Shown here: positions 9,569 to 64,000 of the stretch, in pieces
How positions within the stretch are numbered: the first letter of the stretch is position 1
Layout: each line of letters begins with the position of its first letter
NCBI GenBank assembly: GCA_964016885.1
Contig: OZ024742.1
Span: forward strand, 84,940,001 to 85,004,000
Direction: 5' to 3'
DNA from: Eledone cirrhosa
Lineage: Eukaryota
DNA length: 64,000 bases
Translations under genes and position numbers: made by a program
Notes under the pieces: generated by a model
What the model saw: only the letters and a program-made list of their open reading frames with translations
Told to the model about the DNA's origin: nothing
Databases searched by the model: none

Positions 9569-9604
9569 CTTTACCGGTTTCGCAGTTCTTCTGCTTTTCA
9601 AAAG
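9569..9604 (-). ncRNA. Minimal hammerhead ribozyme motif, U3-A8 variant (family I)
   Basis: CTT TTGAAAA GCAG-AAGAA-CTGC GAAA CCGG TA AAG; palindromic ACCGGT stem III; identical copy at 45326..45361. Confidence 0.6.
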
Positions 9605-9706
9605 TAGAGTTGAGATGGAGGGTCTGTGGTTTTTCTCTAAGAAAAACCACAGACGCCCCCTCGTGTAGGACACCTCGGTTATTTTTCATTTTAAAAAAAA
9701 CCTCAC

Positions 9707-12249: not shown

Positions 12250-13820
12250 ATTTATTTATTATTGGCCACAACGGCTGAACATAGAGGACAATACAAAGAC
12301 GGGGACAGTGGTGGTTTACAATAAAATCAAGAAAAAACATGAAGATAACAAAAAAACTATTAACAATAAAAAATATAATAATTCAAATTCGCCGATAGTT
12401 GTAATGACCGACCAGATACGACATTGATCATCTACTAATGCTGAAACCGCCGACAATTCGAGAGCACCATGGAATGGCACCCTTCACACCCTCAAATCAA
12501 CCAACCTGCATTCACCTTTGAGCAAATAGTCTGCGGGTCAGCACTTCCATCTCCACCTTCCAATTCCTTTCCATGTGAAAGTTGAAAAGTTGGATGAGTG
12601 ATTGGTGGAAGACTGAAGTGTCTATCTTCACTCCTTTCAGCCTCGACCACGACACAACCGTTTTCGCTAGTTTCCAGGAAGAGAAAAACTGCCTGCCATT
12701 CCAGGCCAAAACGAGGCGGTGGAGCGATCTTTAATATGGACTTGGTCAATAGCCCGATCCGTCCAATACGCGATAACAGCTATTGACAAACTCCCCAATT
12801 GAGTAATCCACGGATACTGGACAATACCTACAGAACGCTTTCATTACTCTGCGCTCAACACGGACAGGTCCGACTGACCGCACTTCTGTGTCTTTAGTGT
12901 TTATCTCTTCTGGTAACATTGTAAAGCGTATCATTTCGAGAGGTTTCCATAACTCCCAGCCAGAAATTCTTCAGTTTAATTTCATCGACGACCGGCGCCT
13001 CTCTGAGAGCGCAGACACACTTGCACATCTCAATCTTCTATTGAGTGGAATTTCCGCAGATCGCATTGCCCGCTTTGTTGTGGTAAAAGAACGGCTGGCA
13101 GCATTCCAGATGCCATGCGCCCAGTCTCAATCTATACTTGACCCGGGACTGAAGCTCACTCAAAGAGACGAAAGTCAGAGAGACATGTCACACAAACGAC
13201 GACTACACCTGTTCACCATTGAGGCAGAATATCTGGAGATGTCATAACCAAAGATCATGACAACACATCGTCACCCAAAACATATCTAGCTCTCTGCGTA
13301 GAGAGTGGTAGCTGCAGATGGACGGCTTCACAAATAGACTCTGATCCTTCCACAACAAATTGAATAGCAGTCGTTTCAATATTGAGCGGTGACAACAGGG
13401 GCATGGTAGATAATGAGGCCGTAATACATGAAGGACACGATAAAGACGTTCGCTCCCACTGCCTTACCATTCAGGGATAGCTTCCTGATGCCCCATTTCT
13501 GAGTGAGTATAGCCATACTGCACTTTATCTCGTGTCATTTCTCTTAAAAGAGTAGGGGTGATCTGAAACAGACAACGAGCAACTTCACAGGGTCGTCCGC
13601 CAAAATCGGACGTCGCTGTTGAACGGCAGGGATTTCCTTCCCCGGGTGCCAAGCTGCAAGCCCACTGACTTTTCCGGGTTCAGATATATTTCCGCCAACC
13701 TTCAACTCCTCCAAGAATGGGCCGATTTTCTATGTGTTCGAAAGCACCACGCTTATACCGTCCGCATATGCCGACGCAGCCCTTGCACGTCGCCGTTCGA
13801 GGGATTCCCTGCGACAGTTT
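12250..13820 (-). mobile_element. Older 5'-truncated copy of the same Tx1 family
   Basis: 12250-12320 is the reverse complement of the 3' end at 7968-8039, with a TAA tail at 12224-12249. KIAPPPRFGLEWQAVFL matches KIDPPPSFGQEGQAMFL. SAYADGISVV (YADD remnant) lies near 13750-13775. Confidence 0.75.
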
Positions 13821-18584: not shown

Positions 18585-19208
18585 AAAAATGAAATTTCAT
18601 TTCTCACTCTTAATGTGGCTGATACTTAAATATAAGTATGTATACGTATAAACATATATGTATACAGACGTACAGTAGTATGTATATACATACATACATG
18701 CACACACATATATATATGTATATGTACGTATGGGTTTACCGAACCTTTATTATAATGCTGGGCTTGTTTGTAAACAAACAGCCCGAAATATTAACCATAC
18801 AGTGTTCGACAACCATCGTTGCCCTTTTGTTCAACACTGACAAAGGAATGATGAACTAGTTTCTAGCTTATTAGCTGTCATCAGCACCGTATACCTTCCT
18901 GTCAGTCGATTGAACGTTTGAAAGTATATACTTTCCTTATGCATATTAACGGCTGAGCAGCCTAATTTGCATATCGAGTGAGTTAGTCGGCCGGGTGTAC
19001 CGAAAACGACAAACGGGCTGTTTGTTTACAAACAAACCGACCAGTATAATAAATGTTCGGTAAACCCATACGTACATATATATATGTGTGCATGTATGTA
19101 TGTATATACATACTACTGTACGTCTGTATACATATATGTATGTACGTATACATACTTATATTTAGGTATCAGCCGTACTAAGAGTGAGAAATGAAATTTC
19201 ATTTTTTC
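18583..19208. mobile_element. Element with ~200-bp inverted arms and internal hammerhead motif 18849..18889 (-) (family D)
   Basis: 18583-18785 is inverted at 19014-19208. GGTG CTGATGA CAGCT-AATA-AGCTA GAAA CTAG TT CATC. Homologous to 59690-59985. Confidence 0.7.
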
Positions 19209-23452: not shown

Positions 23453-23661
23453 TATATATATATATATAAGAAAAAGGGATATTTAATTGTTGGTGATGTT
23501 AAATAAATTGAAACTAGATTTATAAAACCATATTTATTCTATTATATATATTTTAAGGGTACCAAAACTTTGGTACGCTCTCATCAGATAAAATACAAAG
23601 TTTATTTTATAAATATTGACATAAGCAGGAAGATCTTAACGTTTCAATATATATATATATT

Positions 23662-25395: not shown

Positions 25396-25431
<36 letters not shown>

Positions 25432-25435
<4 letters not shown>

Positions 25436-25922
25436 GTTTCTACTTTAGGCACAGGGCCAGCAAATTACCCAGTGCATTACTGGTACTTTATTTTATCGAC
25501 CCCGTATGGATGAAAGGCAAAGTCAACCTCGGCGGGATTTGAACTATATATTATATATATATATATAATTATTTCTACTTTAGGCACAAGGCCAGCAATT
25601 ACCCAGTGCATTACTGGTACTTTATTTTATCAACCCCGTAAGGATGAAAGGCAAAGTCAACCTCGGCGGGATTTGAACTATATATTATATAAATATATAA
25701 TTGTTTCTACTTTAGGCACAAGGCCAGCAATTACCCATTGCATTACTGGTACTTTATTTTATCGACCCCGTAAGGATGAAAGGCAAAGTCAACCTCGGCG
25801 GGATTTGAACTATATATTATATATATATATAATTGTTTGTACTTTAGGCACAAGGCCAGCAATTACCCAGTGCATTACTGGTACTTTATTTTGTCGACCC
25901 CTGTAAGGATGAAAGGCAAAGT
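25432..25922 (-). repeat. Four tandem partial copies (~130-bp period) of a tRNA-derived SINE
   Basis: Unit ..GGCACAAGGCCAGCAATTACCCAGTGCATTACTGGTAC..GGATGAAAGGCAAAGTCAACCTCGGCGGGATTTGAACT, separated by TA-rich spacers; longer copies at 38270-38440 and 48655-48838. Confidence 0.85.
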
Positions 25923-35137: not shown

Positions 35138-37931
35138 TAGGGTAGTCCAGAATCCCACATTTTACACGAAAGGTTTTTTATCTTAGCTCCCTATGCATTT
35201 TCTCATGCGATTTTGTATATTATCAATTTATAATCTAATGTTGATTATTTCAGACTAATTTAAGCCTTCCCTAATAGTTGCAAATTGGCAGATTAATGAC
35301 GGAAACCAGTGGGCCTAGTTGTAGCTACTCGCTCCGTTGTGATGATCGAGAAATATGGCTCCTGGGGCAATATGTTACATCCTTTTCACCAAACAAAATA
35401 CCAACAAAGGGGATGATGTAAGATATTTTTTCTGCCTGAAAGATGGTCCTATGAAACACGAAAAGCATGTGAGCTTAAATGGTGCTATTGCAGATAGGCT
35501 TGTGATGGAAGTATTTAGTCAGTGGGAAAAAGATAGTGTGGCGACTCAACGAAAAGACAAAGTGAAACTGAAAATTATGAACATGTACAGTCAATACAGA
35601 AATTTACAAAAAGAATAAAAACAAAGGTTCTAAGTCAAACAAAGAAAAGGAAGCACTATTTATTTCTGAATTGGATTTGTATTTATACATTGCACATACT
35701 GATGCTGAAAAGAACATTTTGAAAGACCGTATTCGTAATAATGAACTGAAGATGGAAGATGCTATATTTCTCAAAGCCCTACGTTGCCAGAACAAAGTAT
35801 CTCTGGCTACTGAAGACAAGGGTTACCATGAAAAGGTATCTTCAAAGTTTAAGCGTGATCAGTTTTCTGTGGCTCGTCGAGAGTAAGAGAACCAGAGAAA
35901 TCGTTCGTCAAGATCTGTATCAGCACAATTTCCAGGCAATGAACTGAGTGATTCAAGTTCAACCAATGATGAAACTGAAGATAAACAGGATCCCGAATTT
36001 TAGGCCTCAAACCCACCCAGAGACAGCTCAAAGTCAGACAAGAAACGAACAATTCAGCTGGAACTGCCAAAGAATTCCATTTCAAAGTCCAAAAATGTCT
36101 CTAATGGCTGATCGTTTAAACCTGACACTGGGCCAGAGAACAGCATTTATGGCATCGATTATTTCTGAGGGTGGGACTGACATAGACGCCACAACTCTCT
36201 CCAAGAATAGTAGCAGATGTGCAGATAAGAAGATCAGAACTGTGAGGGCTGAACAGATAAAGGAACAATTTGTTGTACCAGACTTTGTTACCTTGCATTA
36301 GGATAGTAAAATAATTCCTGGTGACCACGAGAGGCTAGATGTGCTAGTTGCTGGAACTCCGGACTTCAGATAAGGTAAACTCCTCGGTGTTCCCATAATT
36401 CCTGATGGTACTGGAACCACCCAAGCAAAAGCATCATTTGATCTTGTTAAAGATTGGAATATTGATTGGTCTGTGCTGGGCTTGGTCTTCGACACAACTG
36501 CTCTGAATTCTGGAGGGAAAAATGGTGCCTGCGTGAAACTAGAAGAGATGCTCAGCAAAAGGGTGTTTTATTTTGCTTGTCGGCACCATGTCATGGAGCG
36601 TATCTTGTGTGCAGTGTGGCAACAACTATTCGGAGCAATGTCAAGTCCAGACACCCCAGAGTTCAAGTTCAAAAAAGATTGGATGTCACTCACGGACAAG
36701 ACCAACTTTAAAACATTGAACATTGTCGACCGGGGACTCAAGCGTCTGTGTTCTGAGAACATCAAGTTCCTCCAAGATTTGCTGATATCCGACGATGGGA
36801 AAATGAGTTCTCTTCCACGGGACGACTACCGAGAATGTGCCGAGTTGATGTTGATCTTGCTTGATGTCACCATTCCTCGTGGAATTCATTGGATGCTGCC
36901 TGGTGCACATCATAACACTTGGTAGATGTCCACAATCATCTATAGTGCAAAGATGTATGCATTTGGTGAGCGACTCAATGACGAGCAAGCTGAAATGGAA
37001 AAGTTGCGCCGGATCTGTATGTTCAATGCTCTGTTCTACGTACGATACTGACTGACAGCAGTTAAGTGTGCTGATGCACAATCCAATAACCTTCAATTCT
37101 ACGTGGAGTTGACACAGTACAGTAAGGTTCACAGAGATCTCTCGCAGGCAGCCACTACTGCTCCGAGCAGGCATCTTTGGTACCTGATGGAGGAAGCCAT
37201 TCCGCTAACGCTGTTTTCAAGTCGGGTCCAAGAGTCCGAGAAGAAACAAATAGCCCAACGTCTTGTCAAAACGAAAATCTCTGGGCCTCTCGACCGTGGT
37301 GCTCCAATATTTCCCGAGTTGAAGTCGTCCACGAAGCTGCATCATCTAGATGGGAAGAAACCAAGGCTTCTGTTCGATCTCCTTGGTCTCGACGATACTT
37401 GGCTTGAGCTGTCACCTGCAACTTGGTCATCACAAGCGTTATATCAAAATGCCTGTGCTGTTGTTCACAATATCACGGTAGTCAACGATCTGGTAGAGAA
37501 AGCAGTCAAGTTGATAACTGATTTTGTTGCCATCACCAATAATGAGGAGGAGAAGCAGTGTGTTCTTTAAGTAGTCGAAGCTCATCGTCGCAAGGTCCCA
37601 GATTTCGAAAAAGAAACTCTGACAAAAATATGACTGGAGTTAACTTAACTGAACTTGTTTCTTCCTTGTACGCCATTATATTCAAAGCTGGTTTACTAAA
37701 TATAATGGATTAATAAAATACACAATTATTGTATGGTCACATTTGGTTTCACATTTTCATGATTTCATGCAACCTAATCACACTTTCTACTATAATCACC
37801 ATGATATAGGCAAAGCTCAAAATAATTTATTTGATACAAAATATATTTAATTTTACCAATTGGGGCATTTACAATGAGAAAATACAGAGGGAGCGTTAGT
37901 ATTGTGACCTTACTTTTTATGGCACACGCTA
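35138..37931 (+). mobile_element. Complete hAT-superfamily (hATm-like) DNA transposon, transposase pseudogene 35355..37633
   Basis: Ends TAGGGTAGTCC / GGCACACGCTA (imperfect TIR). Exact 8-bp TSD ATATACAT at 35130-35137 and 37932-37939. Motifs LH*DSK, KLLGVP, FDTT, ACRHH (CxxH), PRDDYRE, RHLWYL, VVND.VE; several stops. Confidence 0.85.
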
Positions 37932-38269: not shown

Positions 38270-38443
38270 CAGTATCGGCAGAGGGTGGGACGCCGTGCTT
38301 TCCAGCATAATTACGTCTCTTTACGGTCTGAGTTCAAAACCTGTCAAAGATAACTTTGCCTTTCATCCTAAAGGGGTCGATAGAATAAAGTACCAGTAAT
38401 GTACAGGATAATTGGTGCCTTGTGCCAAAAGTGGAAATAATTA
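38270..38443 (+). mobile_element. tRNA-derived SINE
   Basis: B box GAGTTCAAAAC, then CTTTGCCTTTCATCCT..GGGGTCGATA..AGTACCAGT; same family as 25432-25922. Confidence 0.75.
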
Positions 38444-38448
38444 TTATA

Positions 38449-39175
<727 letters not shown>

Positions 39176-39198
39176 ATATATATATATATATATATATA

Positions 39199-39850
39199 TG
39201 AAGACAAACATAGAATATTCGAAAATATTCTGTATGTTTATAATAAACATTTTGAAGACCTAATCGCTATAGAATAGAATACGTCACGTATTACAATTTG
39301 AGATTCTCGATAAAAGCAAGGGAAGTAACCTACGCGTTTCATTCTTATTTGAAATCATCAGGATTACATATCCAATGCTTTTATCGAGAATGACACAGCT
39401 AGAGACTTATAGAATACTTAGCTGTGTACAGGAACTGGTTTGAAAGAGCGGTTGCCGGTCCGGCAGAAATTAGAATTTGGATTTAATGCTCTGAAATAGC
39501 GATATATATATGTGAAGACAAACATAGAGCATTAAATCCAAATTCTAATTTCTGCCGGACCGGCAACCGCTCTTTCAAACCAGTTCCTGTACACAGCTAA
39601 GTATTCTATAAGTCTCTAGCTGTGTCATTCTCGATAAAAGCATTGGATATGTAATCCTGATGATTTCAAATAAGAATGAAACGCGTAGGTTACTTCCCTT
39701 GCTTTTATCGAGAATCTCAAATTGTAATACGTGACGTATTCTATTCTATAGCGATTAGGTCTTCAAAATGTTTATTATAAACATACAGAATATTTTCGAA
39801 TATTCTATGTTTGTCTTCACATATATATCGCTATTTCAGAGCATTAAATC

Positions 39851-39855
<5 letters not shown>
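39199..39855. mobile_element. Young family A foldback: two head-to-head ~313-nt units, each wrapping past its own junction
   Basis: Near-perfect inverted arms. TGAAGACAAACATAGA at 39199 and 39513; AGAGCATTAAATCC at 39526 and 39838; TA tracts on both sides. Confidence 0.9.
39651..39693 (+). ncRNA. Minimal type I hammerhead ribozyme (mirror copy 39325..39367 on -)
   Basis: GTAATC CTGATGA T-TTC-AAATAA-GAA-T GAAA CGCG TA GGTTAC; palindromic ACGCGT; stem I extended by the 15-bp helix TTCTCGATAAAAGCA/TGCTTTTATCGAGAA. Confidence 0.85.
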
Positions 39856-39912
<57 letters not shown>

Positions 39913-40017
39913 TAACAGATTAAAGTTTAAGCAAAGAATCGCTGCTTTCACTCTTCATGGGATCTTCTGAAAGTAAAATAATAAATCTGTGAACGCAGAA
40001 GTAATACGTTACACACA

Positions 40018-40048
<31 letters not shown>

Positions 40049-40052
<4 letters not shown>

Positions 40053-43000
40053 TAATGAAATGACAGGAGGCTGGATTTGTGTAAATCCTTGAAAGGTTTA
40101 TTATACTATGATCATTTCAATGACCGGGTTCCGTATGAATCCGGTGATATCATCAGGTATTCGAAATATAATACTTGAATGTAATAGGTAAAATCCATGG
40201 GGCTGAAAATCGAGACCCGAGGGCGACCGCTATTCTGTTCCTTCAACCTCAGCCGGTCGCCCTGGAGTGACGTGGCTAAATTTTATAGTATGCTACTACC
40301 GGTCAGATGAACGAAAACAGAAAGAGATGGGAGCATAGGTTAACGTCGATCCCATGACACAAGGTAAAAGAAAGAAAGAAAGGAAGGAGAAGAAGGGGGA
40401 AGAAAGAATAAGAGAAGTCAGGGTTAATGTCAGCTAAAAGAGGAAGGTAACTACTACTGGTCAGATATAGGCAAGCAAGAGGGGGAAGGAAGATAAGTCT
40501 GCGGGAGGAGGAGAGGAGAGAAGGAAGGGAAGAGAGAAGTAGAAAAGTAAGGGTTGGTGGCTACAAGAAGGAAGATAGAAAGGAAGAGGAAGAAAGGTCG
40601 ATATTAATGTCAGACCACAGTCAGGCCAGGAGTGGCGCGAGAAAATTTTCACAGGGACCCGCATCTTAGCGGAGATGAATATATTGGGAGTCAGTGTTTT
40701 ACAGTGTTTAGACTTCTAGGATGAAGTTAAAAAAATTTAATAATCAATATTCAATATTAAAGAGGTTAGAAAATTTAAAGTTCAACAGTTTAACAATTAA
40801 TTATATAATAGTTCCGATTTGTTCTGTAATTTAAAGGTACTATTTGGCGGTTAAAACAACGGCCGCGCCCCGGGCCACATGGCGAATTAAGCCACGCCGA
40901 GTATTTTCATTTACTGAAAGAAGGGGAAATTTATTTTTCCAAGCACTCCAGGTGAGCTCGTTCGCCAGGGAGCTGGTCGCGCCGCCATTAAAACCCACCC
41001 AACAGTCCGACAGAAAGTTGGAACTTTAAAATTTAGCTTAGAGAAGTAAAAGAGTAATGGTTGATAGCTACAAGAAGGAAGATAGAAAGAGAGAGGAAGG
41101 AAGGTCGATATTAATGTCACACCACAGTCGGGCCAGGAGTGGCGCGACAAAATTTTCACAGGGACTCGCATCTTAGCAGAGGTGAATATATTGGGGGTCA
41201 GTGTGTTACAATGTTTAGACTTATAGGATGAAGTTAAAAAATTAATAAATTAATAATCAATATTCCATATTAAAGAGGTTAGAAAACTTAAAGCTCAACA
41301 GTTTCAGGTTGATATATATAATAGTTCCGATTTGTTCTGTAATTTAAAGGTACTATTTGGCGGTTAAAACACCGGCCGCGCCCCGGGCCCCATGGCTAAT
41401 TAAGCCACGCCGAGTATTTTCATTTACTGAAAGAAGGGGAATTTATTTTTCAAAGCACTCCAGGTGAGCCCGTTCGCCAGGGAGCTGGTCGCGCCGCCGC
41501 TAAAACCCACCCAACGGTCCGACAGAAAGTTGGAACTTTAGAATTTTGCTTAACTCTATCGGATGAAGTTGAAAGAATTCAGAATAACATTATGAAACTA
41601 AGGAGTAAGAGGATTGAGAATTGAACAAACAGAAAATTGAAGATTAGACATTCAAATAACTTCTATGAGGTTTTGGGTTGCGGGGTTTAATTAAATAGTC
41701 TTTTATGAAGAAACGTTAATTGTATTATGTAGATCTGTAATTTATCCTAGTGGGATGTAGAGTACGGGATATAGTCGTGTAATGTTTAATTTTTGTTCTC
41801 AGGAGGAGACATTCTAGTGTCGTGTGCTAATGGGTACAGGTCCCAATGTGAGGAGTAGAAATACATGGATACATAGAAGTGGAATACGTGGAAGAGCTAA
41901 TGGGTACAGGTCCCAATGTGAGGGGTAGAAATACATGGATACATAGAAGTGGAATACGTGGAAGAGCACATTGGTACAGCAGAGGTATAAATATATAAAC
42001 ATATCAATATATAGGTATAAACATGTAAATAAACCAACAAGAGTGGTGTTGGAGTAAGATGGAGAAATCAGGACATTAATACAGCAAACAAAGATGTGAA
42101 GATATAGATAAACAAACAATAGTCGTTGTCTAGTAAATGTAGAGTTCAAGAGACAGGAGAAATACAATATAGTTCAGGTTGCGGTATTTATGTTCCCAGG
42201 GCGAAATATTCCAGTGACGTGTGCTGAGGGTACACGCGAATAAAAGTCCGAATAAGGGAAGTAGAAAGTACATGGATGTATAGAGGTAGAATACGTGGAG
42301 GAGCATTAATACAGCAAATAAAGATGTAAAGATATAAATAAACAAACAAGAGTCGTTGTCTATTAAATGGAGAGTTCAAGACACAGGAGAAATACAATAT
42401 AGTTCAAGTTGCAGTCAGATAATGCATATAGATGTGGAAACAGTGCGTGTTCGAGTCTGGGAGTTCAGTGTGAGTTATACATGCCCAGAAGTATAGGGTA
42501 GCCATATAGTTAATTCAGTGCAGTACAATACATGTTATGGTCCAGTTCGTGGAGTTTCATCGAAGTTCGGATATTCTGTGAGGGGAGTAGCAAAGGGCCA
42601 GGCGAAAGCACCGGGTAGCCAAAGTTCGAATTGTGGTTAGATATATTCAGTCCCATGCCGCTGTTGATTATTACATTTTGAAGTGCTCAACATTTCAGGA
42701 GCGTTATTTATTCAGGTTTGAGGTTCACCACTGTATAGAGCTGGTCTATTCCGTATGGTCAATCGTAATGCAATAATATAGAGAGTACTCAACGTAAAGC
42801 AGTTCAACCGTCTTTGTTTTTGTAGTTGGTGGTGCTATTACGGAGTTAAATATTATAATGAAATGACAGGAGGCTGGATTTGTGTAAATCCTTGAAAGGT
42901 TTATTATACTATGATCATTTCAATGACCGGGTTCCGTATGGATCCGGTGATATCATCAGGTATTCGAAATATAATACGTGAATGTAATAGGTAAAATCCA

Positions 43001-43562
43001 TGGGGCTGAAAATCGAGACCCGAGGGCGACCGCTATTCTGTTCCTTCAACCTCAGCCGGTCGCCCTGGAGTGACGTGGCTAAATTTTATAGTATGCTACT
43101 ACCGGTCAGATGAACAAAAACAGAAAGAGATGGGAGCATAGGTTAACGTCGATCCCATGACACAAGGTAAAAGAAAGAAAGAAAGGAAGGAGAAGAAGGG
43201 GGAAGAAAGAAGAAGAGAAGTCAGGGTTAATGTCAGCTAAAAGAGGAAGGTAACTACTACTGGTCAGATATAGGCATGGATTTTACCTATTACATTCACG
43301 TATTATATTTCGAATACCTGATGATATCACCGGATTCATACGGAACCCGGTGATTGAAATGATCATAGTATAATAAACCTTTCAAGGATTTACACAAATC
43401 CAGCCTCCTGTCATTTCATTATAATATTTAACTCCGTAATAGCACCACCAACTACAAAAACAAAGACGGTTGAATTGCTTTACGTTGAGTACTCTCTATA
43501 TTATTGCATTACGATTGACCATACGGAATAGACCAGCTCTATACAGTGGTGAACCTCAAACC

Positions 43563-43568
<6 letters not shown>
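40049..43568 (-). mobile_element. Non-coding 2.8-kb element with 425-bp terminal direct repeats carrying hammerheads, plus an inverted terminal copy (family F)
   Basis: 40049-40473 matches 42852-43276 (offset 2803); 43275-43568 inverts 42709-43002; internal ~500-bp tandem duplication at 40535-41550; no credible ORF. Confidence 0.85.
43314..43371 (+). ncRNA. Hammerhead ribozyme (copies 40103..40160 and 42906..42963 on -)
   Basis: ATAC CTGATGA T-ATCACCGG..CCGGTGAT-T GAAA TGATCA TA GTAT; palindromic ATGATCAT stem III. Confidence 0.85.
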
Positions 43569-43655
<87 letters not shown>

Positions 43656-44086
43656 TCCTTGCCGGAATTAACACGTGGTAACTATAGATTCGATTAGCAG
43701 CCATAAGAGCAGGAACATATATTATCACTCCTGATTCTAAGCAGAACGAAAATCTGTTGATAAACTGAGTCCTCTGTTCAGTCACCAATACCATGACCTT
43801 GCCATTCAAGTAAGTCTGATATTTGATTTCGGAGTCGGAGAAACATTTCAAACGCCCGTTTGATTTGTCCAGGTCTATTTTTCTCAACCTGATCAGTTTT
43901 ATCGTTACTTTGGTATATATTGTGTGTTAGTTTAGCCTACCACAATGTTCGATTTGTCAAGCTATTTAAACGTATGTTATAACTCTGAGACCTATCTTAT
44001 CGAGTGCTTTGCTAACTCATCACTTCATATAAGTAGGCCGAATTTAGTTGCAAACCGCCAGAGATTCGATTTTACTGATTTCCAAT

Positions 44087-44152
<66 letters not shown>

Positions 44153-44157
44153 CACAC

Positions 44158-44208
<51 letters not shown>

Positions 44209-45545: not shown

Positions 45546-45567
45546 CTATATATATATATATATATAT

Positions 45568-46110
45568 ATATACGATATTAACAAATGGAAACTATATTTA
45601 TAAAACCATATCTATTTTATTATACATATTTCAAGGATAACATGTTAAATTATGGTATGCTTTCATCAGACAAAATACAATATATACCAGTTTTAATAAT
45701 AAATATTGACATACCCTTTCAAAATGCGACCGTTACTTTTGGAAGACATCAGGGATAGTGGATTTGTTTATCTTAGTAATTCGTTGTGTTACGGAGAAGG
45801 AAAATGACGGAGAGAGAGAAAAATCCGAGAGAGAGAAAAGTGGAGAAAGAAAGGTTTTTTCTCTCTTTCCGTCTTTTTTCTTCTCCGTAACAAAACGACT
45901 TACTAAGATAAACAAATCCACTATCCCTGATGTCTTCCAAAAGTAACGGTCGCATTTTGAAAGGGTATGTCAATATTTATTTATAAAACTGGTACATATT
46001 GTATTTTGTCTGATGAAAGCATACCATAATTTAACATGTTATCCTTGAAATAGGTATAATAAAACAGATATGGTTTTATAAATAGAGTTTCCATTTGTTA
46101 ATATCGTATA
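45568..46110. mobile_element. Family G foldback with hammerheads 45613..45677 (-) and 46002..46066 (+)
   Basis: ~255-bp inverted arms; TATTTTGT CTGATGA AAG..CTT GAAA TATGTA TA ATAAAATA. Confidence 0.85.
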
Positions 46111-46193
46111 TTTACTCCAAATACTTGTCGAATGCTTTATATCAGTTATAAAAATATTTGCTTGCTGTATCCCAACAATCTAAATTGAACTTT

Positions 46194-46237
<44 letters not shown>

Positions 46238-46267
46238 TATATATATATATATATGCATATATATATA

Positions 46268-46329
<62 letters not shown>

Positions 46330-46362
46330 TACATATATATATATAAATATATATATATATAA

Positions 46363-46418
<56 letters not shown>

Positions 46419-46419
46419 G

Positions 46420-46548
<129 letters not shown>

Positions 46549-48654
46549 TAATTGAAATAACAGATTAAAGTTTAAGCAAAGAATCGCTGCTTTCACCCTT
46601 AACAGGATCTTCTGAAACTAAAAAAATCAATCTGTGAACGCAGAAGTAAATATTTCGAAAAACGTGGCAACCGAAGGAAGAAAAGAAGACGATACTTTGG
46701 TTCGTGGAAAGGTTATTAGAAGTTATTAGAAAAGTGAAAATATTACATGATCTTTAGTTTTGTTTTAAAACAGTTTATGATAGATGGGGAATTCTTACGT
46801 CTTGCCATTTGTAATGTGTATAATTTCTATGATACGAAATTGAATGGTATGATAAACAGCATTGTGGTTAGACACAGGCACACTTTAAAATATTGCAATA
46901 TCAATATATTGAGATATTATAAAGGTATTAACACATAACATTTGTTATGTTGCAACATGCTTTGGTGAATCTTTTAACATGTACCTGATTCGTTTTTGAG
47001 AAAGATAACTCTCGAAATATATATTTAAGAGATAAGTGTATATACGGTATTACTAATGATAACATATTTTCGCCTGAAGACGAAATATAACCCATATAAA
47101 GATAATTATATGAATTATTATAGATAATTTAACAATAGAAAAACGTAGAACACGTTTTGAAAAATGGTAGTCAAACAAATAACAATATTTAGTTTATATA
47201 CATAAAATACAAAAGAAGCCCAGTATTCTAGACTTAATTGCATATTTTCTTTGTCGTTTGCTGTTTAACTTGAGTTTAGTTACTGAAGATCTTACTGCAA
47301 TAATGTTAATAATTTCAGGTGGATATTTATCTCGTAACTATGTATGTATGTCATTAAATGGTAACAAAGAACGACACTTCTAAAGGAATGTGTAGAGGGC
47401 GTCAATGTGGAGGAACATAAATAAAAACTGCAAAATTGCTATATTATTAATGTACACAGATGTTATTAGATAAACATGCGATTTGAAGAGCAAATGTTAC
47501 TCGAATATAATAGATTAAATAGAACATTAATCGCTACAAATAGATAACTAAATAAAAAGAAATCTACAATAGTTATGGAATATCTATAAGACGAACATGA
47601 AATATCTTGAAACACTATTTATTGTAATACCTTTCAGTCATTTGTAAATATCATTAACATGATAGCAGGTTTTCAAACTACAAACATAATGTAGATATCA
47701 AATATACATACTGTTTTTCTATTGAATAAGACGAACTTAAATAATTATTGAAGAAAAGAAGGAATTATGCTAATAATGTTGGGAATATAATTATTTCAAA
47801 TTAACAAAGATGTGTGCATTATGGATAACATTTGCTAAATCACATAAATGTACACCTGAATATATCTTTTCTTTTTTCATATTAAAACATAAATTATACA
47901 GTAGATAATTAATATATCTACTATTTTGCACTTAAGCAAAGTCCATTCACTGTTATAAGTGAAGAATATAATTGTCTATTTGTTATGACAGATTCACAGC
48001 AAAACTATAAAACGGTGCTACATAAGTTTATTCATGATATATGATGAATTTATTAAAGAAAACTAGATATTCTATACCCACAAAGGTAAGGTATATTATG
48101 AGTAAATACATTTCTATATTGATATATTCTATACTACAAAAAGCATAGGATATTATGAATAAATACATTTTTATAATAGTAAATATTGATATATTCCACA
48201 CACAATACGTAAAAATGTTAGTTCTGAATTCATAGGAAATAAATATTATATTATTAAAATATCAATTATGAAATAGGAAATGTATGTGTATACATTTAAA
48301 ATAGTTCTGGCTTCAATATTAGAGCTGTATGCTATAAATGAATGCACCTGCAACAGAATTCACTTTCTTTTAGCGAATAAAAAGTAAGACATTTAGGAGT
48401 GAAAATTAAATAAATATTTCTAAATGTGTTTCTCATGTAACATTCTGCTTAAATTTGTGGCAGAAAATTTACAGACAGCCATAGGTTGAGATGAAATATT
48501 TATTTCGTTTGCCATGAAAAATTCTCAAATTAGCTTGTACCTTAATTCTTATTTATACCATTGAAATTTCTCAAAATAAAGTATAATTCTATAATTCTCA
48601 AATATACCTACAGTTCTACCCGAATGTTGAAGCGTTGCATTGCAACATTAATAA

Positions 48655-48838
48655 TAATTGTTTCAACGTTTGGCACAAGGCCAGTAATTACCCAGTGCAT
48701 TACTGGTACTTTATTTTATCGACACTGTAAGGATGAAAGGCAAATTTAACCCCGGTGGGATTTGAACTCAGAATGGCAAGGGCGGTAACTCAAAGCATGG
48801 TGTCCGACTCTCTACTGATACTGCCAATCCAACCGCCT
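48655..48838 (-). mobile_element. tRNA-derived SINE, near full length
   Basis: Minus strand GGCGGTTGGATTGGCAG..GAGTTCAAATCC..TTTGCCTTTCATCC. Confidence 0.8.
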
Positions 48839-50051
48839 TGCAACATTAATAATAATGCTACTGACAAAGACTTGTTTTATGGGAGTAACGTCGATTTAAT
48901 CCTTCCTATTAATTGAATACTACTTATTTTATATTCGATGGGAAAGAGAAATTAAAAATGTAGTGTAAAGCGATTTGAATTACAAACATAATATGAAGTA
49001 GGATAATGTGGTAATTCTAAAAATTCTATGAAATAAACAATATCACCATCTCAAGGGGTCGATTGAAACGAATATATCACTCCTACAATCAGTCAAAAAT
49101 GTAAAGAATTACCAGCAGTTTGTGATTCAATTAAGTGTTGGTGAACGACTTAATATATCAAATTAATATATCCAAACTATCTTAATTAATATAAATATAG
49201 CAATTTTAATACAAAGTGTTTTGACCTTCAAAACATTATTAACGTTACAATTTACAATGTACCTCTCAATAAGTGAGTCAAATATATAGTGGCTGTAAAC
49301 AAGAGAAGGTTCGTTCCTAAATATTTTGCCGAAATATATATGTACTCTTTTCCTTTTTTTCATATATGTGTCACCAAACCACTAGAATACATTATACGTG
49401 AAAGTAGTGTGCAAAAAACAAATGTGTATCAATTTCACTGAAATAAGTTTGCGGATTAGTAATGCGGGCCTCTTTGATTTTCATTTAATAGGAATTTACT
49501 GAGTCACCCAGAAACCAAAACATTATATTTTCTTAATGAGTAGTTTGTCCGTTTCATCAAAGACTATTCCGCATCATCGTTACCTGGTGGGCAAATTACA
49601 CGCCATTATGCCGAGCACACATAATGAGCTATAATACTTTTTTTTTCTTTTTTTTCTTGTATTTTACCCTCCCCTCCACCAGATTCTATTGCGTTCCCAT
49701 TGTTAAAATAAAATAAGGCTGTTGATTTTAAGAAGGTTAGGTTTCCCAACGGCATTGAAAATTAGAATGTTAGTTATATCTCATGGGTCTATTTATGTTC
49801 CTGACTACAATACAAAGTCCATGAATTTTTATTCATTCTGGCATTGTTCCGTGGTACACAATTAATTGCATGTGTTACATTTGTAAAGCAGCCAAAATTA
49901 ACTTCAGGAATATAAAATATGTAAAGAAAATATTGCTGTGTATTCTAGCTATAGAAAATAAGACAATACGCCTATACACACATATAGGCATACCTACCTA
50001 TATACAAATACACATAAAAACATATCTGATTGTGTGAGTTTGTGTGTGTGC

Positions 50052-50090
<39 letters not shown>

Positions 50091-53133: not shown

Positions 53134-53925
53134 TAGCATTAAAGCCCGTCGTATATATATATATATAAATATATCAACCATATATATATAAATATATCAA
53201 CCAGGGTTTGTTTATAAAAAAAAACGATAGCTAATAAGATGTGCTTACGCCGTATGTAACTAAATACAATTAGTCTCTAATTTGTTGTTTCTTTTTTGAA
53301 AACGCTGAATGGAAGAAGAAGCATGACGACTGGAGTACATGGGTCACGAATCCACATATTTGGTTTGCCAGCAAACCAAATATGTGGGTTTCTGTCCCTC
53401 TGTATTATGAGCAAATGGGGTCCCGGCAAAATATATGCAAAATATATGCAATGAACGTATATGCACCAAACGGAACGAAGACGAAAGAATCTGAGGATCC
53501 AGATTATGATATTTATTGCAGAGTAAAAGCGCAGTGGTAGAACGCTACTAAGCTATAAATTAAACGACGAGCTCCGTCCTCTCCAAAAATAATAAAAACA
53601 CAGACACTCATACTCACGCACACACTCACATAGACACTAACTCAAACGCACGCAAATGCACTCAGAAACACACACGTATAATTAATGTGGGATTTTCAAA
53701 AGGAAAGGAATGAATCGTATTAGGTAAGGTATCCATTAGTAGAGAAGAAGCATATTTGTTTTATAGAGAAAATTCTGTTCCAATAGACTAGAACTGTTTC
53801 ATGCTAATGAACCTGTAGAAGTGATGTAGAAGTCACTGTTATTTGAAATAATACTTAGGACCATCGCTATTTGATATATTGAGTAACATATTTTAAGTAT
53901 TGACTACTTCCATTCTCTAAACAAC

Positions 53926-53974
<49 letters not shown>

Positions 53975-53982
<8 letters not shown>

Positions 53983-54648
53983 ATACTTTGGGAGGGTCAT
54001 GTTGCCAATGAGAAACACACGCACCAGTTGCTTTCACTTCAATTTAATTTATTATATATTTATAAATTTACAAATTTATAAATTTCTGGTTGGTTGGTTG
54101 GTTCCACAACCAGATAGTTGTTTATATATATATAGTCATAGTTCTTTCGTCACACACTCTGTGACCTCTTCAGTGACTGGGGATTTCTTTCTTCGTTTCT
54201 GTGCCTTTCCTTTCTTCTATCCTACGCCATTTTGTTTGTGTGTGGGTTGAACGCTACTAAGAACGCTACTAAGCTATAAATTAAACGACGAGCTCCGTCC
54301 TCTCCAAAAATAATAAAAACACAGACACTCATACTCACGCACACACTCACATAGACACTAACTCAAACGCACGCAAATGCACTCAAAACAAAATGGCGTA
54401 GGATAGAAGAAAGGAAAGGCACAGAAACGAAGAAAGAAATCCCCAGTCACTGAAGAGGTCACAGAGTGTGTGACGAAAGAACTATGACTATATATATATA
54501 AACAACTATCTGGTTGTGGAACCAACCAACCAACCAGAAATTTATAAATTTGTAAATTTATAAATATATAATAAATTAAATTGAAGTGAAAGCAACTGGT
54601 GCGTGTGTTTCTTATTGGCAACATGACCCTCCCAAAGTATAACAATAT
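53975..54648. mobile_element. Family H foldback with hammerheads 54134..54178 (-) and 54445..54489 (+)
   Basis: 53975-54237 is inverted at 54385-54647; AGTCA CTGAAGA G-GTCACA-GAGTG-TGTGAC GAAA GAAC TA TGACT. Confidence 0.8.
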
Positions 54649-56100: not shown

Positions 56101-56947
56101 GTTCGTCGTCTTCATATAAATTCTGGATGTCGTTATATTCTGTGCAAAAGTTAAAGGCCGAAACAATTGCTTGAGTCAGTATTCTTCTCTGAAGATATTC
56201 TACAGCCCAGCTGTAATTTTGTTACCTCTATTGTGCACAATTGTTTCAATTTCATACATTATAATGTTCATATTCTGCATTCAAACGTTTTATGTTATCA
56301 ACATAATCAACACAACCATATGAAAATATAATATTTAGTTTTGGGATTCAGATTTTGCTCATTTCACATAAAACTATCAATTTAAACAAAACATACAGCA
56401 GTTTTATACCTGTTCTAACCCCCTTAGCAACTCCCACTGGAAAAAGAAGTATGAGTAAGCCTGAAGCAAATTTCTTGATTTCCGGGATATATATCTATCA
56501 CATGCTATATTTTTATCGCTAATTGATAAGTTTTCACATTGGAACATTATCAATTGTAGTTTTAGATAATTGTAGTTTTAAATCTATATTCTCTATATTC
56601 ACAGTTTTCATGTGTAAAAAATGATATCATACACTGTTAGAAAACTATGATCTGTGAGATGATTTATTTCATATATATTTAAGTTTTCGTACTGTAATTT
56701 TACTTCTCTCAACATATATTTCCTTAGGTTATCTTCCTTGTACTATTTAGGTTATTTCTCCATTTCAATTTACCAATGTATTAAAATATTTAACTTATAT
56801 TTATAAACACACACATACCCCCCCCCCCCCCCATATATATATATATATATATATATATCTGTGTAGACGTTCTATTTAAATTGTTGGGAGCAAATATTTT
56901 TATAACTGATATAAAGCACTAAACAAATTATTTGAGTAACACTACTA

Positions 56948-57240
56948 TATATTAACAAATGGAAACTATATTTATAAAACCATATTTATTTCATTATACA
57001 TATTTCAAGGACACCAAGTTAAATTATGGTGTGGTTTCATCAGATAAAATATAATGTAGAGCAGTTTTATAGATAAATATTGACATTAAGGGTATGTCAA
57101 TATTTATATATAAAACTGCTCTATATTATATTTTATCTGATGAAAGCACACCATAATTTAACTTGGTGTCCTTGAAATATGTATAATGAAATAAATATTG
57201 TTTTATAAATATAGTTTCCATTTGTTAATATATCGTATAT
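56948..57240. mobile_element. Family G foldback with hammerheads 56987..57051 (-) and 57129..57193 (+)
   Basis: Inverted arms centred at ~57088; stem II ACACCA/TGGTGT versus ATACCA/TGTTAT in the 45xxx copy. Confidence 0.85.
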
Positions 57241-59665: not shown

Positions 59666-59816
59666 ACGTACATACATATTCATTCTTTTGCATTTATCAT
59701 TTTCGGTATTCCCGGCCGACTAACTCACTAGATATGCAAATTAGGCTGCTCAGCCGTTAATATGCATAAGGAAGGTATATACTTTCAGACGTTCAATCCT
59801 CTGACAGAAAGGTATA

Positions 59817-59857
59817 CGATGCTGACGATAGCTAATAAGCTTGAAATTAGTACATCG
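59817..59857 (+). ncRNA. Minimal hammerhead ribozyme (family D)
   Basis: CGATG CTGACGA T-AGCT-AATA-AGCT-T GAAA TTAG TA CATCG. Confidence 0.8.
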
Positions 59858-60515
59858 TTGTGTCAGGTTTGAACAAAAGGGCGACGATCGTTGCCGAGCA
59901 CTGTACGGCGTAATTCGGGCTGTTTGTTTACAAACAAACTGAACATTATAATAACTGTTCGGTAAACCCATACGAACATATACGTATATATAGTTTTATT
60001 AGTTTCACGCCCCATATTAGATAAAAGGTAAAACAATTTGACGTGTCGGGCTTAAGCCCCTTTTCAGGAGTTCAGTACAAATAGAGACATGATCACAATG
60101 GAGAAACAGAAAGAAGGTCCAATAAAGACACACATACACACATACACACAAAAAGAAAACGAAAACTGAGAAGGAAAACAAAAAGCCGTTATGTAGTCTT
60201 GGTAACGTGTAGGAACGCAAGGTAAAATGTGTAAAGTTAGAGAGTTTATGGTATGTATCCTTGAGAGTGTATCCAAGTGTTAGTGTAGAGTGTATTATGA
60301 GAGTGTATCCGTGTGTTAGTGGTAGTGGACAAGCATGTTTGAGTGGATCTACATTTAAATGTGTGTACTGTTTATGTGCGTTGAAGTAATTCGTTTGTGT
60401 GTGTAAAGTATCGGTAGTGTAAAGTATGTATGTGAATGAATGAGTTAGTATGTGTGAGTTTATGATAAATTTTAACGTGTGCATGTATGTGTCAGACGAT
60501 ATTCATACATATATA

Positions 60516-61408
60516 CGAGGTGGGTCAGAAAAGTTCCAGGACTGATGTCACAAAAGATTTATTTCAAACCGAAACTTCGCACTAAGAGTTTTCTCCTTGA
60601 AAGTAATCCCCTGGAGTCTAATGCACTGTTCCATCCTTTTCTGCCACGCTTGCATGCACTCCTGGAAGGATTCTTCCGGGATTCTCCGCAGTTCCGTCGT
60701 CACGGCCTTTTTGATGTCGTCCACGTCTTCAAAACGTGTCCCCTCCGGGGCGTACTCGCAGATCCATTACACATCACCGGTGATGACTGTCCCTACCAAG
60801 TCTGGTTCGGTTTCAAGAAGCTCGAGGATGTCCTGGCACACTTGCATGAGTCGACCCTTCTGGTCATCGTTCAGCAGTTTTGGCACCATCTTCGCGCAGA
60901 TTGTCCGCATGCCCAAATCTTCAGCGATAATCTTCCAGACGCTGTCCCGATTCCTGCCCAGTTCATTTGCCACCAGTCGAACCGTCCGCCAACGATCGCT
61001 ACGCACCATCTGCCTGACGCGCTCAACGTTGACTTCAGTCCTGGTTGTTGGGGGCCTTCCGGTCCTGGGGTCATCTTCCACATCCTCGTGTCCTTCTTCA
61101 AACCTCTTTCACCACTCAAAATCACGTGAGCATGACATCGTCTCATTTCGATACACTTGCTGCAGCAATCCCAGTGCTTCTGACGGAGTTTTCAAGTTTG
61201 TTCGTTGCTGTGCTCATTGCTTGAAGACTTGAAACAGAGGACATGTATATAAAATTATGAAGAAAAAAGTTTGATCGCTGCAGTGTGCTAAGATTACAGT
61301 TACATACCCCAGGGGGAGTAATTTGAAGAAGAAAACTCTTAGTGTGAAGTTTGGGTTTGAAACAAATCTTTTGTGACATCTGTCCTGGAATTTTCCTGAA
61401 CCACTTCG
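60516..61408 (-). mobile_element. Internally deleted mariner transposon
   Basis: TA|CGAGG..CTTCG|TA ends, ~90-bp imperfect TIRs. EDDPRTGRP..CAKMVPKLL..ITGD joined to GTRFEDVDDIKKAVT..WQKRMEQCIRLQGDYF; most of the DD34D domain is missing. Confidence 0.9.
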
Positions 61409-62859
61409 TACATACATACATACACATACGCACACACACATATATATATATCACAGAAAAAAAGAGAATCAGTGTAGCGACAAATGGAATTTATTGGACA
61501 TATTACAATCGTTTCTTTGACGACCAGCTCGAGGCACGATCGATTTGATGATCGAACCAGACTCTGAAAATCGGAAGGTCCTCAGATACGTCTTGATTCT
61601 ACGAAACAGATTTTCCTATGGACTTTTACATCGATATACTTCGCTTGTCGGCTTAGATCCTGTTGTTGTCATTTTATGAGTGGTCAATAATTGTACACGT
61701 CATCGGTATTTCTAGCCACTCATGGTTGTCTACTATTTGGTTCTTTTCATTCTCCACCTGTCAATCAAATATGTTTCTTAGGTCGGAATTACTACTGTAG
61801 TAGGTAAGGGGTTGTATGCTTGAACTGCTGGCGGCACTTCGACGTCTTCACTGTCTTTAGGCGCCCACTTCTACACCGTATTTTATGCGACGATCACCAT
61901 AAATAATGTTTGGAGGCAATTTTTAAATCAAATTAGAAAAATATTTAGCATCACGTTTCAAGAACACAACCCCAGAATAGCTTAAAACATACATATTTCA
62001 AAAAGAAAAACACACTCTGTACAAAGAACGTTTTTAAATGAATGCTTGGAACAGCCTTTCAAAAAAAGTTATTTCGAAGGCATTTTTGGTAAATATACAC
62101 ATATCTACACTCACACACTGTACTCAGGGAAGCGTGTATATTTGAGACGTTGTACATATATACACAGATGAAAAAAAGAAAGATCTACACATAGGCATTT
62201 ATACTATCACACAGAAATGTTCATACAATTACATCCACCCAGACATGTGCATACACGTACGCATGGATATCTGCGTGGATGCACATACTTACATGTACCC
62301 GCGAACGCTCATATCGAGGGCGGATACTTGATGAATACCCTCCCATGGTGCACATATTATTATATGGAACAACTATCTTGAGGCTTGAACCCAACCCGAT
62401 CATGTGACGATATAAGCCTGAAAGTGCATGCATAATATGCATAAATATTATAGCCGCATAGTATCCTTGCGCTAATCACAAATAATTTGGGTGGCACATA
62501 CATATAGAAACATGCCTGTATATACATAAAATAAAATAATATAAAATAAAATAAAATAAAATAAAATAAAATAAAATAAAATAAAATGCTGGAAAAAGGA
62601 ATGTATACATGACTACAATGCAGAGGGGGACCAGACATTATTGGGGTGAGCGTAAAGTTGCATAAACTACTTGAGGGCTGTGGTGCATATGGTTATATAA
62701 TATACATGGGGACTGGTCATCTAAGGTACTGGGTAAGAGTCTGCACATGCTGCATGTCTCATGGCTGGTGGACACATGGGGGGGGGGGGGGGCGTGCGTG
62801 CGTACATAAACAAGTTATATATATTGTGGATGTGTATAACAATTATATATATATAGAGA

Positions 62860-63490
62860 GATATTTAAAAAAAATAAGAGATGTGACACACGAGTTCTGA
62901 TATATTAGTAAAAAGGAAAATACAATGCTGACAAATTTTTCCCAGTCAAAAATAGTTTAATTAGGAATAAGTATAAATTAGTAATCAGTATTAGTTAGTA
63001 TTCAGTTTTAGTTTTAAGGTTTTACCCGTTGCGCATTTCTTATGCTTTTCAAAAATATTTTGAGATAGAGTGCTCGTGATTTTTGCTCTAATCTGATAAG
63101 TTTTGGAAATTATTCCTGTTTTATGTGAAAAAAGTGGCTTGGGAGGCATTAATATTTGGTGGGTTGTTGAATTTCACGTGAATAAGCACTATAAATTTCG
63201 CGCCAATTCGTGTTGCAATAATTTTGAGATAGAGCGCCCGTGATGTTTGCTCTCATCTGATTAGAGCAAACATCACGGGCGCTCTATCTCAAAATCATTT
63301 TTGAAAAGCATTAGAAATGCGCAACCGGTAAAACTTAAAACCAAAACTGAACACTAACCAATACTATTACTAATTTTTACTTATTCCTAATTAAACTATT
63401 TTTCACTGGGAACAATTTGTCAGCATTTTCTTTTCCTTTTACCAATATATCATAACTCGTGTGTTACACCTCTATTCGTTTAAATATATA
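62860..63490. repeat. Diverged foldback (62860-63093 vs 63259-63490); related fragment at 15100-15217
   Basis: Inverted arms read directly; short TA flanks. Confidence 0.75.
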
Positions 63491-63493
63491 TAT

Positions 63494-63769
63494 GTATACA
63501 GACTAGAGTGTGACAAATGCAACAACTTCTACGTAGGTAGCACCACCAGACCACTCCACATAAGAATAAAAGAACACCTCAATACTAACGCTTCCTCATT
63601 TAAGAAACACCTAGTTAAATGCAAAAACACCGACAAAACCATAACAGTTAGGATAGAAACTAAGGAAAGAAACCTCGGCAATCTTAGAATTAAGGAAGCA
63701 CTAATTATAGATAAAACGCAACCACCAATCAATAATAGACTAGAACTCAACACCCAATTTATAACCTGA
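63494..63769 (+). pseudogene. 5'-truncated Penelope-like element: C-terminal GIY-YIG endonuclease
   Basis: VYRLECDKCNNFYVGSTTRPLHIRIKEH..SSFKKHL..RIKEALII..QPPINN has the GIY-YIG signature with CxxC; no stops; begins at a TA run; CA-rich 3' region follows. Confidence 0.85.
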
Positions 63770-64000
63770 TAGGCTTCTATCCCCATATTTACACACCCCA
63801 CACACACACGCACGCACACACACACTCACATACTTACACCTTCATGCATTCTCCCACACACTTAAACAGGCATCTATATAAAAAAACCTAAACAAACCCC
63901 TTTTAAAGGGAGATTACTCTTTATGCACCTAATTTTAACTCTTTGACATTTGAGATAGAACAGATACTCTATACTATTTCCTGTCAGCATGGCTTGGCAA

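Follow-up and report, generated by a model that had tools for sequence, protein, structure and literature searches.

What kind of mobile element leaves two almost identical direct repeats, each with a hammerhead ribozyme, around more than two kilobases of non-coding DNA, and which machinery could have inserted it? The question is raised by a 64,000-nt stretch of the Eledone cirrhosa genome (NCBI GenBank assembly GCA_964016885.1, contig OZ024742.1, positions 84,940,001 to 85,004,000 of the forward strand; hereafter the window, in whose own numbering all positions are given), animal DNA rich in (TA)n, in which an element at 40049-43568 is set between two (TA)n tracts. A preliminary description of the sequence had taken it for a large relative of the retrozymes with long terminal repeats (LTRs). 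It is a young and complete insertion of the type made by Penelope-like elements (PLEs), with a non-coding 2.8-kb unit, a known architecture and an unusual size, and we regard it as probable that a non-autonomous PLE inserted here recently. Its repeat unit would be a non-coding sequence of 2803 nt that contains one type I hammerhead, i.e., it would be an oversized animal non-LTR retrozyme.

Architecture of the element

The element and its flanks are made up as follows (TA tracts from Tandem Repeats Finder, TRF):

40021-40048, no strand: (TA)n target tract of the left flank, 14 copies
40049-40473, minus strand: 3' direct repeat (pseudo-LTR, pLTR), 421/425 identical to 42852-43276, its 3' end 58 nt past the predicted cut, at A/T-only sequence
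42852-43276, minus strand: 5' direct repeat, part of a second unit whose 5' end is cut off at the inversion junction
43275-43568, plus strand: head-to-head inverted, 5'-truncated copy, equal to 43002->42709, with a 143-nt tail into the next unit, its 3' end 198 nt past the cut
43566-43655, no strand: (TA)n target tract of the right flank, 45 copies

The near-identical 425-bp direct repeats and the flanking TA tracts of the preliminary description were thus recovered; the repeats align without gaps, their starts lie 2803 bp apart, and they are limited by the (TA)n junction at one side and by the inversion point at the other. The description had also closed the element with a third, inverted repeat. 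An inverted copy is indeed present (reverse complement of 42709-43002 with 3 mismatches in 294 nt, or 294/298 identical if extended to 43572), joined at a 2-nt microhomology, but because it contains 151 nt of the repeat and 143 nt of the interior it is an inverted piece of the unit rather than an inverted LTR. The three copies differ by substitutions, with no insertions or deletions, and their divergence is about 1%. The tandem extends over 1.15 units, and this layout suggests that the 425-bp "LTRs" arise where a copy of a 2803-nt monomer, 1.15 units long, overlaps itself. Both outer ends are 3' ends of the element, and each stops at an A/T-rich, TA-like template sequence; (TA)n is present in both flanks, so no target-site duplication (TSD) can be read. 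The motif AATAAA (minus strand: 42712, 42905 and 40102) stands directly past each cut site of the direct repeats and where the inverted copy ends, and may be a poly(A) signal or merely an A/T-rich priming sequence.

The comparison with published work included PMC6431247 and PMC6765202. Insertions of PLEs are described as partial tandems that form pLTRs, often with an adjacent inverted 5'-truncated copy and with a tail at one end, and several PLE clades are biased towards (TA)n (PMC8557442). At this one locus we found the pLTR-forming partial tandem, the adjacent inverted 5'-truncated copy, the tail at one end, a minimal type I hammerhead with palindromic stem III inside the pLTR, and the (TA)n target, and the statement of the preliminary description that tandem plus inverted repeats are typical of PLE insertions agrees with PMC8557442 and PMC3846280. 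The PLEs with an endonuclease (Penelope/Poseidon, Neptune, Nematis and Hydra; PMC8557442, PMC4209133, PMC3846280) share with the element the insertion layout, (TA)n, a unit of about 3 kb and microhomology at the 5' junction; they carry an open reading frame (ORF) for reverse transcriptase (RT) and GIY-YIG endonuclease, whereas the element shows neither such an ORF, which defines an autonomous PLE, nor a remnant of one.

The interior is built in large part of duplications:

40533-41040, minus strand: module copy 1, ~510 bp, 40% GC, 91% identical to copy 2
41040-41552, minus strand: module copy 2, ~510 bp, 42% GC
41789-42415, minus strand: nested smaller duplications (a 70-bp tandem, a pair spaced by ~230 bp, and copies of 73-78% identity)

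The alignment of the two modules has 22 transitions, 11 transversions and 11 gap columns in 516. These are the duplicated modules of ~500 bp that had been described as GC-rich; the duplication stands, but the GC content is that of the whole unit (40%), and only patches of ~50 nt reach 58-62%. The smaller tandem duplications were confirmed as well (the 70-bp tandem at 41826-41979 with 95% identity, and 42070-42185 / 42299-42415 with 91%), and older internal duplications show 78, 77 and 73% identity. Altogether, 896 of the 2803 bases of the unit are second-copy sequence.

Hammerhead cores and the predicted RNA

Hammerheads were sought with a relaxed scan, which gave 13 cores in the window; 200 dinucleotide shuffles together yielded 33, with at most 3 in any one, and only 5 of 2000 shuffled versions of the 2803-nt unit contained any core. 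Three of the cores belong to the element (minus 40156->40107, minus 42959->42910 and plus 43318->43367), which agrees with the hammerhead that the preliminary description had placed in each terminal repeat:

40103-40160, minus strand: minimal type I hammerhead 1, with a C.C mismatch in the long stem II; predicted cut 40107/40106; no Rfam match
42906-42963, minus strand: type I hammerhead 2, with the same C.C mismatch in stem II; predicted cut 42910/42909
43314-43371, plus strand: type I hammerhead 3, with an 8-bp, fully paired stem II

In all three copies CUGAUGA is followed by a stem II region of 31 nt, then by GAAA, a palindromic stem III loop of 6 nt, the UA cut site and a stem I of 4 bp, and the topology is type I, open at stem I. 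The distance from cut to cut between hammerheads 2 and 1 is exactly 2803 nt. The C.C mismatch is found in both direct repeats and is absent from the inverted copy, and the energy of stem II is -14.6 kcal/mol in hammerhead 3 vs -9.1 and -9.9 kcal/mol in the direct-repeat copies. A homoduplex of stem III would comprise 8 bp (-7.2 kcal/mol). The minimal hammerheads of PLEs have a short stem I, a long stem II and a palindromic stem III, and act weakly and as dimers (PMC4209133); the ribozyme of the element could probably cut no more than weakly, and only after dimerising through its palindromic stem III.

At the gathering threshold, Rfam gave no matches in the whole window, including none to the 13 hammerhead cores, and at E<=10 the region 39000-44200 gave 15 weak matches, none of them on the three ribozymes of the element. 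The presence of 13 cores in 64 kb, all of them missed by Rfam at the gathering threshold, suggests a large unannotated load of PLE satellites in the genome. A strict scan that required the 10.1-11.1 pair retained 4 cores and missed all three of the element; a variant of the scan retained 11 and, among the three, recovered only the inverted copy. Kinship of the ribozyme to the other hammerhead families in the window was not established (the best comparison was equalled in 22 of 1000 shuffles, the other four in 60-714).

Two features concern the RNA that the direct repeats might release:

40107-42909, minus strand: predicted cut-to-cut monomer RNA of 2803 nt (hypothetical), on the G-poor strand (14% G, 25% C)
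40211-40272, minus strand: G+C-rich hairpin ~55-115 nt upstream of the hammerhead, recurring at +2803, with a z of only -1.3 for its 120-nt window

The release of a 2.8-kb RNA is a prediction, and for this copy a doubtful one. Cleavage by this copy is doubtful because both direct-repeat ribozymes have the mismatch in stem II and the inverted copy could pair over one of them. Local folding of 53 windows on both strands gave a single strong one (41069-41188, minus strand, z -4.9). A structured RNA in the ~510-bp modules was considered for it and rejected, two changes breaking the hairpin in the other module.

In composition, the unit has a strand skew of 0.27 overall, which is reached by 3% of the windows of the same size elsewhere, and the skew is positive in all of its 400-nt bins (0.07-0.45), in the repeat and the interior alike. 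The sense strand has more C than G in the element, as in the PLE fragment at the right end of the window, and the opposite is the case in two long interspersed nuclear elements (LINEs); plain intergenic DNA at 46-51 kb has 21-31% GC and a weak skew. Mild enrichment was seen for the words AGTTC and ATATA (uncorrected z of about 4.5). Candidates for regulatory signals were rejected: E2F-like motifs occur once per module and 9 times in the window, without enrichment, and although the plus strand has a pair of Pol III A and B boxes near 42400-42457, the window contains the B-box pattern 19 times. No tRNA was found.

Origin of the unit and route of insertion

Is the 2803-nt sequence a unit of its own, or did the ends of a PLE enclose something else? 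A self-contained unit is favoured because a duplication spans the border between repeat and interior, no scar of (TA)n marks the inner ends, the inversion point coincides with the inner limit of the repeat, and the skew is uniform. The strongest competitor is a one-off capture, in which host DNA, or else a long spacer or 3' untranslated region (UTR) belonging to an autonomous PLE, travelled a single time in trans between two pLTRs, so that the interior would be cargo and not a unit specific to a family. The interior is unstructured, and no further copy of it was seen within the window or in a protein search with an interior frame, as a capture would predict. The repeat, however, has no border of its own: its identity runs to the inversion point, and a duplication of 77% identity (40381-40449 vs 40509-40577) straddles the line between repeat and interior. 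Neither 42851 nor 42709 shows a (TA)n scar, yet (TA)n stands close downstream of 9 of the 10 other cores. The 40% GC and the skew of 0.27 are uniform across repeat and interior, far from the composition of the intergenic DNA, and interior sequence is also present in the inverted copy. We judge a capture unlikely. The captures flanked by pLTRs in Adineta vaga (Pen3a-NRPS, non-coding captures and Pen1 spacers; PMC3846280) are single events with discrete pLTRs of ~200 bp and with TSDs, unlike the element, in which repeat and interior look like one continuous, long-evolving unit and no TSD is readable.

According to a second alternative, the 2.4-kb interior would be the ruined RT and endonuclease ORF of a decayed autonomous PLE, and a match of the interior to such a sequence was one of the outcomes that, according to the preliminary description, would refute its reading. 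The length would suit it, the distance between hammerheads in PLEs being ~3 kb (PMC4209133). We searched the interior with Pfam, with a PLE profile and with tblastn, and decayed coding sequence was not found. The longest stop-free frame in the unit has 119 aa, a length reached by 103 of 300 shuffles, so the interior is without an ORF, as had been described, and in six frames with stops as X, Pfam gave nothing below E 0.14. For the profile, 151 PLE proteins were gathered via the endonuclease fragment in the window (the two that were scanned both show RVT_1 and GIY-YIG), and 65 of them, of 500-1200 aa, were used. The best score on the element was -6.4 bits, whereas 30 shuffles reached up to -0.6 and the fragment, as control, scored 100.4; the profile covers a single PLE subgroup and detected a 93-aa remnant in 20 of 20 trials at 20% substitution, in 17 at 30% and in only 5 at 40%, which leaves some room for an old remnant. 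In tblastn, the 151 proteins gave 4 matches to the element (E 0.011-0.044), i.e., at chance level, and when the interior was compared with the remainder of the window by tblastx, the matches listed were all to low-complexity (TA)n. Furthermore, about 0.9 kb of the unit is internal duplication, and loss of an ORF after insertion is ruled out because the copies differ by just ~1%. We take the element to have been non-coding already at insertion and consider the ruined ORF very improbable; a coding ancestry in the remote past would leave the element non-autonomous all the same.

Equally poor are the prospects of a local duplication and inversion, or an assembly artefact, around a single hammerhead-bearing insert. 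Repeats of 99% identity amid long (TA)n, which is hard to assemble, could invite such an explanation, but the copies differ by substitutions only, and each outer end is a 3' end that lies downstream of a ribozyme, in (TA)n, as in four other pairs in the window (arm identity 91-100%) and as in published PLEs.

The LTR-retrozyme class proposed in the preliminary description did not survive. The LTRs of Ty3/gypsy-like elements end in TG...CA; here the repeats end in TG...AT (minus strand) or AT...CA (plus strand), and the 25 nt beside each repeat contain, in both orientations, no TGG with which a primer-binding site (PBS) would start and no purine tract before the 3' repeat that could serve as polypurine tract (PPT). 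In plants, the hammerheads of LTR retrozymes are mostly of type III, and these elements possess a tRNA-Met PBS, a PPT, 4-bp TSDs, LTRs of 300-400 bp and structured circles of 600-1000 nt, and depend on Ty3/gypsy (PMC4918200). A true LTR retrozyme, or an element like the large retrotransposon derivatives (LARD), moved by Ty3/gypsy machinery is hardly credible: the hammerhead in each 425-bp direct repeat around a non-coding centre resembles the plant elements superficially, but the ribozyme is type I, PBS, PPT and TG...CA ends are missing, and the third copy is inverted and the target (TA)n.

Several observations weigh against a self-contained, mobile retrozyme-like unit and should be set beside these arguments. 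No other copies of the element were found within the 64-kb window; none of the 7 candidates from a protein search with one interior frame was a copy; scanning bacterial and archaeal genomes, a collection unsuited to this host, for a pattern of the element gave none either; and no DNA is shared with the PLE fragment of the window, although the 3' end of that fragment lies outside the window. The foot of stem II has, in all three hammerheads, U opposite U (or A-U with a bulge) in place of G10.1-C11.1, a pair that is conserved in PLE hammerheads (PMC4209133); U/U recurs in the cores at 39361, 39657 and 59822 of the window, and to judge from these sequences it looks like a local variant. In a transcript that enters from the right flank, hammerhead 2 would be sequestered in a hairpin of ~294 bp, paired with the inverted copy along its whole length, and the ribozyme would therefore be usable only by an RNA starting inside 43003-43276. 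In vitro, 8 of 9 dimers of Xenopus retrozymes stayed uncleaved (bioRxiv 10.64898/2026.07.22.740005). The circular fold of the monomer is no better than that of shuffles (-526.0 vs -531.5 +/- 8.3 kcal/mol, z +0.7, 50% paired; 8 shuffles), whereas described retrozyme circles are highly self-paired. The interior is free of microsatellites, but so are 1130 of 5574 windows of the same size elsewhere, and this does not discriminate. The tail has 140 nt, vs 30-40 bp described for PLEs, and the hint of two templates discussed below consists of one nucleotide only, which gene conversion could mimic.

Among known systems, the animal non-LTR retrozymes (PMC7229834; bioRxiv 10.64898/2026.07.22.740005) come closest in content: a non-coding head-to-tail unit with one type I hammerhead and a weak palindromic stem III, GC below 45%, and neither PBS nor PPT. 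They have been argued to be non-autonomous PLE derivatives (bioRxiv 10.64898/2026.07.22.740005). They differ in forming arrays, where the element has 1.15 units and a minimal PLE-type core without G10.1-C11.1, and in size, ~150-400 nt (PMC7229834, PMC7761336) compared with 2803 nt. A screen reports retrozymes of 51-972 bp in 35 genomes, with a tandem period limit of 1000 bp (bioRxiv 10.64898/2026.07.22.740005), and was blind to a 2803-nt unit because of this limit. The remark in the preliminary description that the size exceeds known retrozymes is accordingly borne out: the unit is about three times as long as the longest retrozyme consensus that we found in print (972 bp), although supplements may hold longer families. 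Schistosome W-elements reach 1.2 kb, and four families have hammerheads (PMC8490949). In coleoid cephalopods, the families that have expanded include Penelope (PMC8967140), and in the literature consulted we found no multi-kilobase hammerhead-bearing non-coding PLE family in cephalopods, although Repbase or Dfam may hold one. The non-autonomous Chlamys PLEs of Chlamydomonas (MRC1 and Chlamys-N4; PMC8557442, PMC9940879, bioRxiv 2022.05.23.493040) are active, with pLTRs, head-to-tail copies and microsatellite targets; these are green-alga elements, and canonical hammerheads are missing from most Chlamys. MRC1 was initially given the wrong label of non-autonomous LTR element, the same error as the LTR-retrozyme label here, and elements of this kind are either annotated wrongly as belonging to the LTR class or remain "unknown".

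The insertion could have proceeded as follows. A tandem donor would have been transcribed from the minus strand, and the RT and GIY-YIG endonuclease of an autonomous PLE, acting in trans, would have nicked (TA)n, with cDNA synthesis starting at an A/T-rich, TA-like RNA sequence shortly downstream of the ribozyme. Copying over 1.15 units would yield both 425-bp "LTRs" seen at the locus. A second, short and 5'-truncated copy, which is joined head-to-head via the 2-nt microhomology, would have been added, ending 140 nt further downstream (the PLE "tail"). The unit itself would have expanded to 2.8 kb by serial internal duplications that would predate the insertion, except for the 70-bp tandem.

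All three hammerheads are uninterrupted across their cut sites, from which we infer a template in the form of a ligated circle or of a multimer that had not been cut, since cDNA across the cut site could not come from a cut linear monomer; a ligated circle has been proposed as PLE template (PMC4209133). The inverted region has four comparable variable sites: each of the two direct repeats has one private change, a third site is of uncertain assignment, and the fourth is the base in stem II whose variant is common to both direct repeats and not to the inverted copy. Chance restoration of the stem II pair in the inverted copy is estimated at ~1% (2 useful among ~450 substitutions, 1-2 events). 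This single nucleotide hints that the direct repeats may derive from one template and the inverted copy from another, which favours a circle, with no fewer than two source variants, and speaks against self-copying of a fold-back.

A wider reading, which we advance tentatively, is that dispersed "giant" retrozymes exist, as multi-kilobase, unstructured, non-coding circles cut by dimeric hammerheads and reinserted by PLEs; they would have been missed so far because screens took tandem units up to 1 kb only. In its boldest form, held with the same reserve, the palindromic stem III would join two template RNAs and so explain the head-to-head insertions; the inverted copy differs in stem II as if a second molecule had been its source, and the window has four further hammerhead pairs arranged head-to-head. 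If the element is multi-copy, ribozyme-bearing non-autonomous PLE derivatives are extended about threefold in size, and a PLE would need only the ribozyme-proximal region in cis to move kilobases of non-coding sequence repeatedly; if it is single-copy, it merely joins the pLTR captures known from Adineta. Because one region can be read here in three copies, the locus is a test case for the PLE template (circular or multimeric), the origin of the inverted copy and tail, and the role of the ribozyme, all of which are called undefined in PMC8557442.

Neighbouring elements in the window

Eight of the 10 other hammerhead cores form four small head-to-head pairs that end in (TA)n (39190-39828, 45565-46114+, 53975-54648 and 56943-57237). 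The left neighbour of the element, the fold-back 39190-39853, has arms of 303 nt that are 100% complementary, hammerheads at 39361 (minus) and 39657 (plus) with a weak Rfam match to HH9 (E 0.22), and a short one-sided tail, and is set in (TA)n; it is apparently a small PLE satellite of very recent origin. Between this fold-back and the element, ~100 bp at 39908-40004, enclosed by two (TA)n tracts, recur with ~91% identity at 46549-46649, beside the (TA)n of 46197-46548; in 46549-50055 no ORF or Pfam match was found. The fold-backs 45565-46196 and 56943-57237 share one hammerhead family with a long stem II, further pieces of which lie at 9473-9662 and 23502-23623. Their 3' ends are 48/138 and 136/50 nt past the cut, and because two fold-backs of the same family show these values, unequal fixed 3' ends are a local rule. 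In the fold-back 53975-54648 (263-nt arms, 99.6%), each hammerhead has G-C at the foot of stem II, and the distance to (TA)n is 4 nt; 53539-53670 repeats 54260-54390. A fourth hammerhead family comprises 18709-19013 and 59693-59992 (87% identical), with cores at 18884 (minus) and 59822 (plus).

The PLE fragment at the right end of the window (63488-64000) is a 5'-truncated 3' end with an open GIY-YIG frame; it begins at a short TA run, and its 3' UTR exits the window. Its GIY-YIG part (63488-63766; Pfam E 7e-8) is 66% identical to a protein of Octopus bimaculoides and 68% to a protein with RT and GIY-YIG. A Cys-rich linker before the endonuclease in its relatives suggests that the fragment may be of Neptune or Nematis type. 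Directly upstream lies a 252-nt inverted repeat (62850-63100 / 63252-63498). The UniRef entry A0A0L8GYC4 of Octopus bimaculoides joins a PLE thumb and GIY-YIG (the first ~277 aa) to an unrelated long protein with PF05672, presumably MAP7, and is probably an annotation fusion.

Other repeats in the window include LINE remnants at 782-2416 (minus), 6166-7758 (plus) and 12513-13507 (minus), among which a 545-aa frame ends in an RT-like start (judged by eye); another remnant has an endonuclease and zf-RVT, and a 70% identical inverted relative at 12.5-13.5 kb. The frames at 60767-61108, which we take to be mariner-like, and at 36374-37570 resemble remnants of DNA transposases, with no Pfam match at E 0.01. 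At 25409-25922, a 132-bp unit with a short TA run is present in 3.8 tandem copies, and single relatives of it occur at 38331-38476 and 48647-48768.

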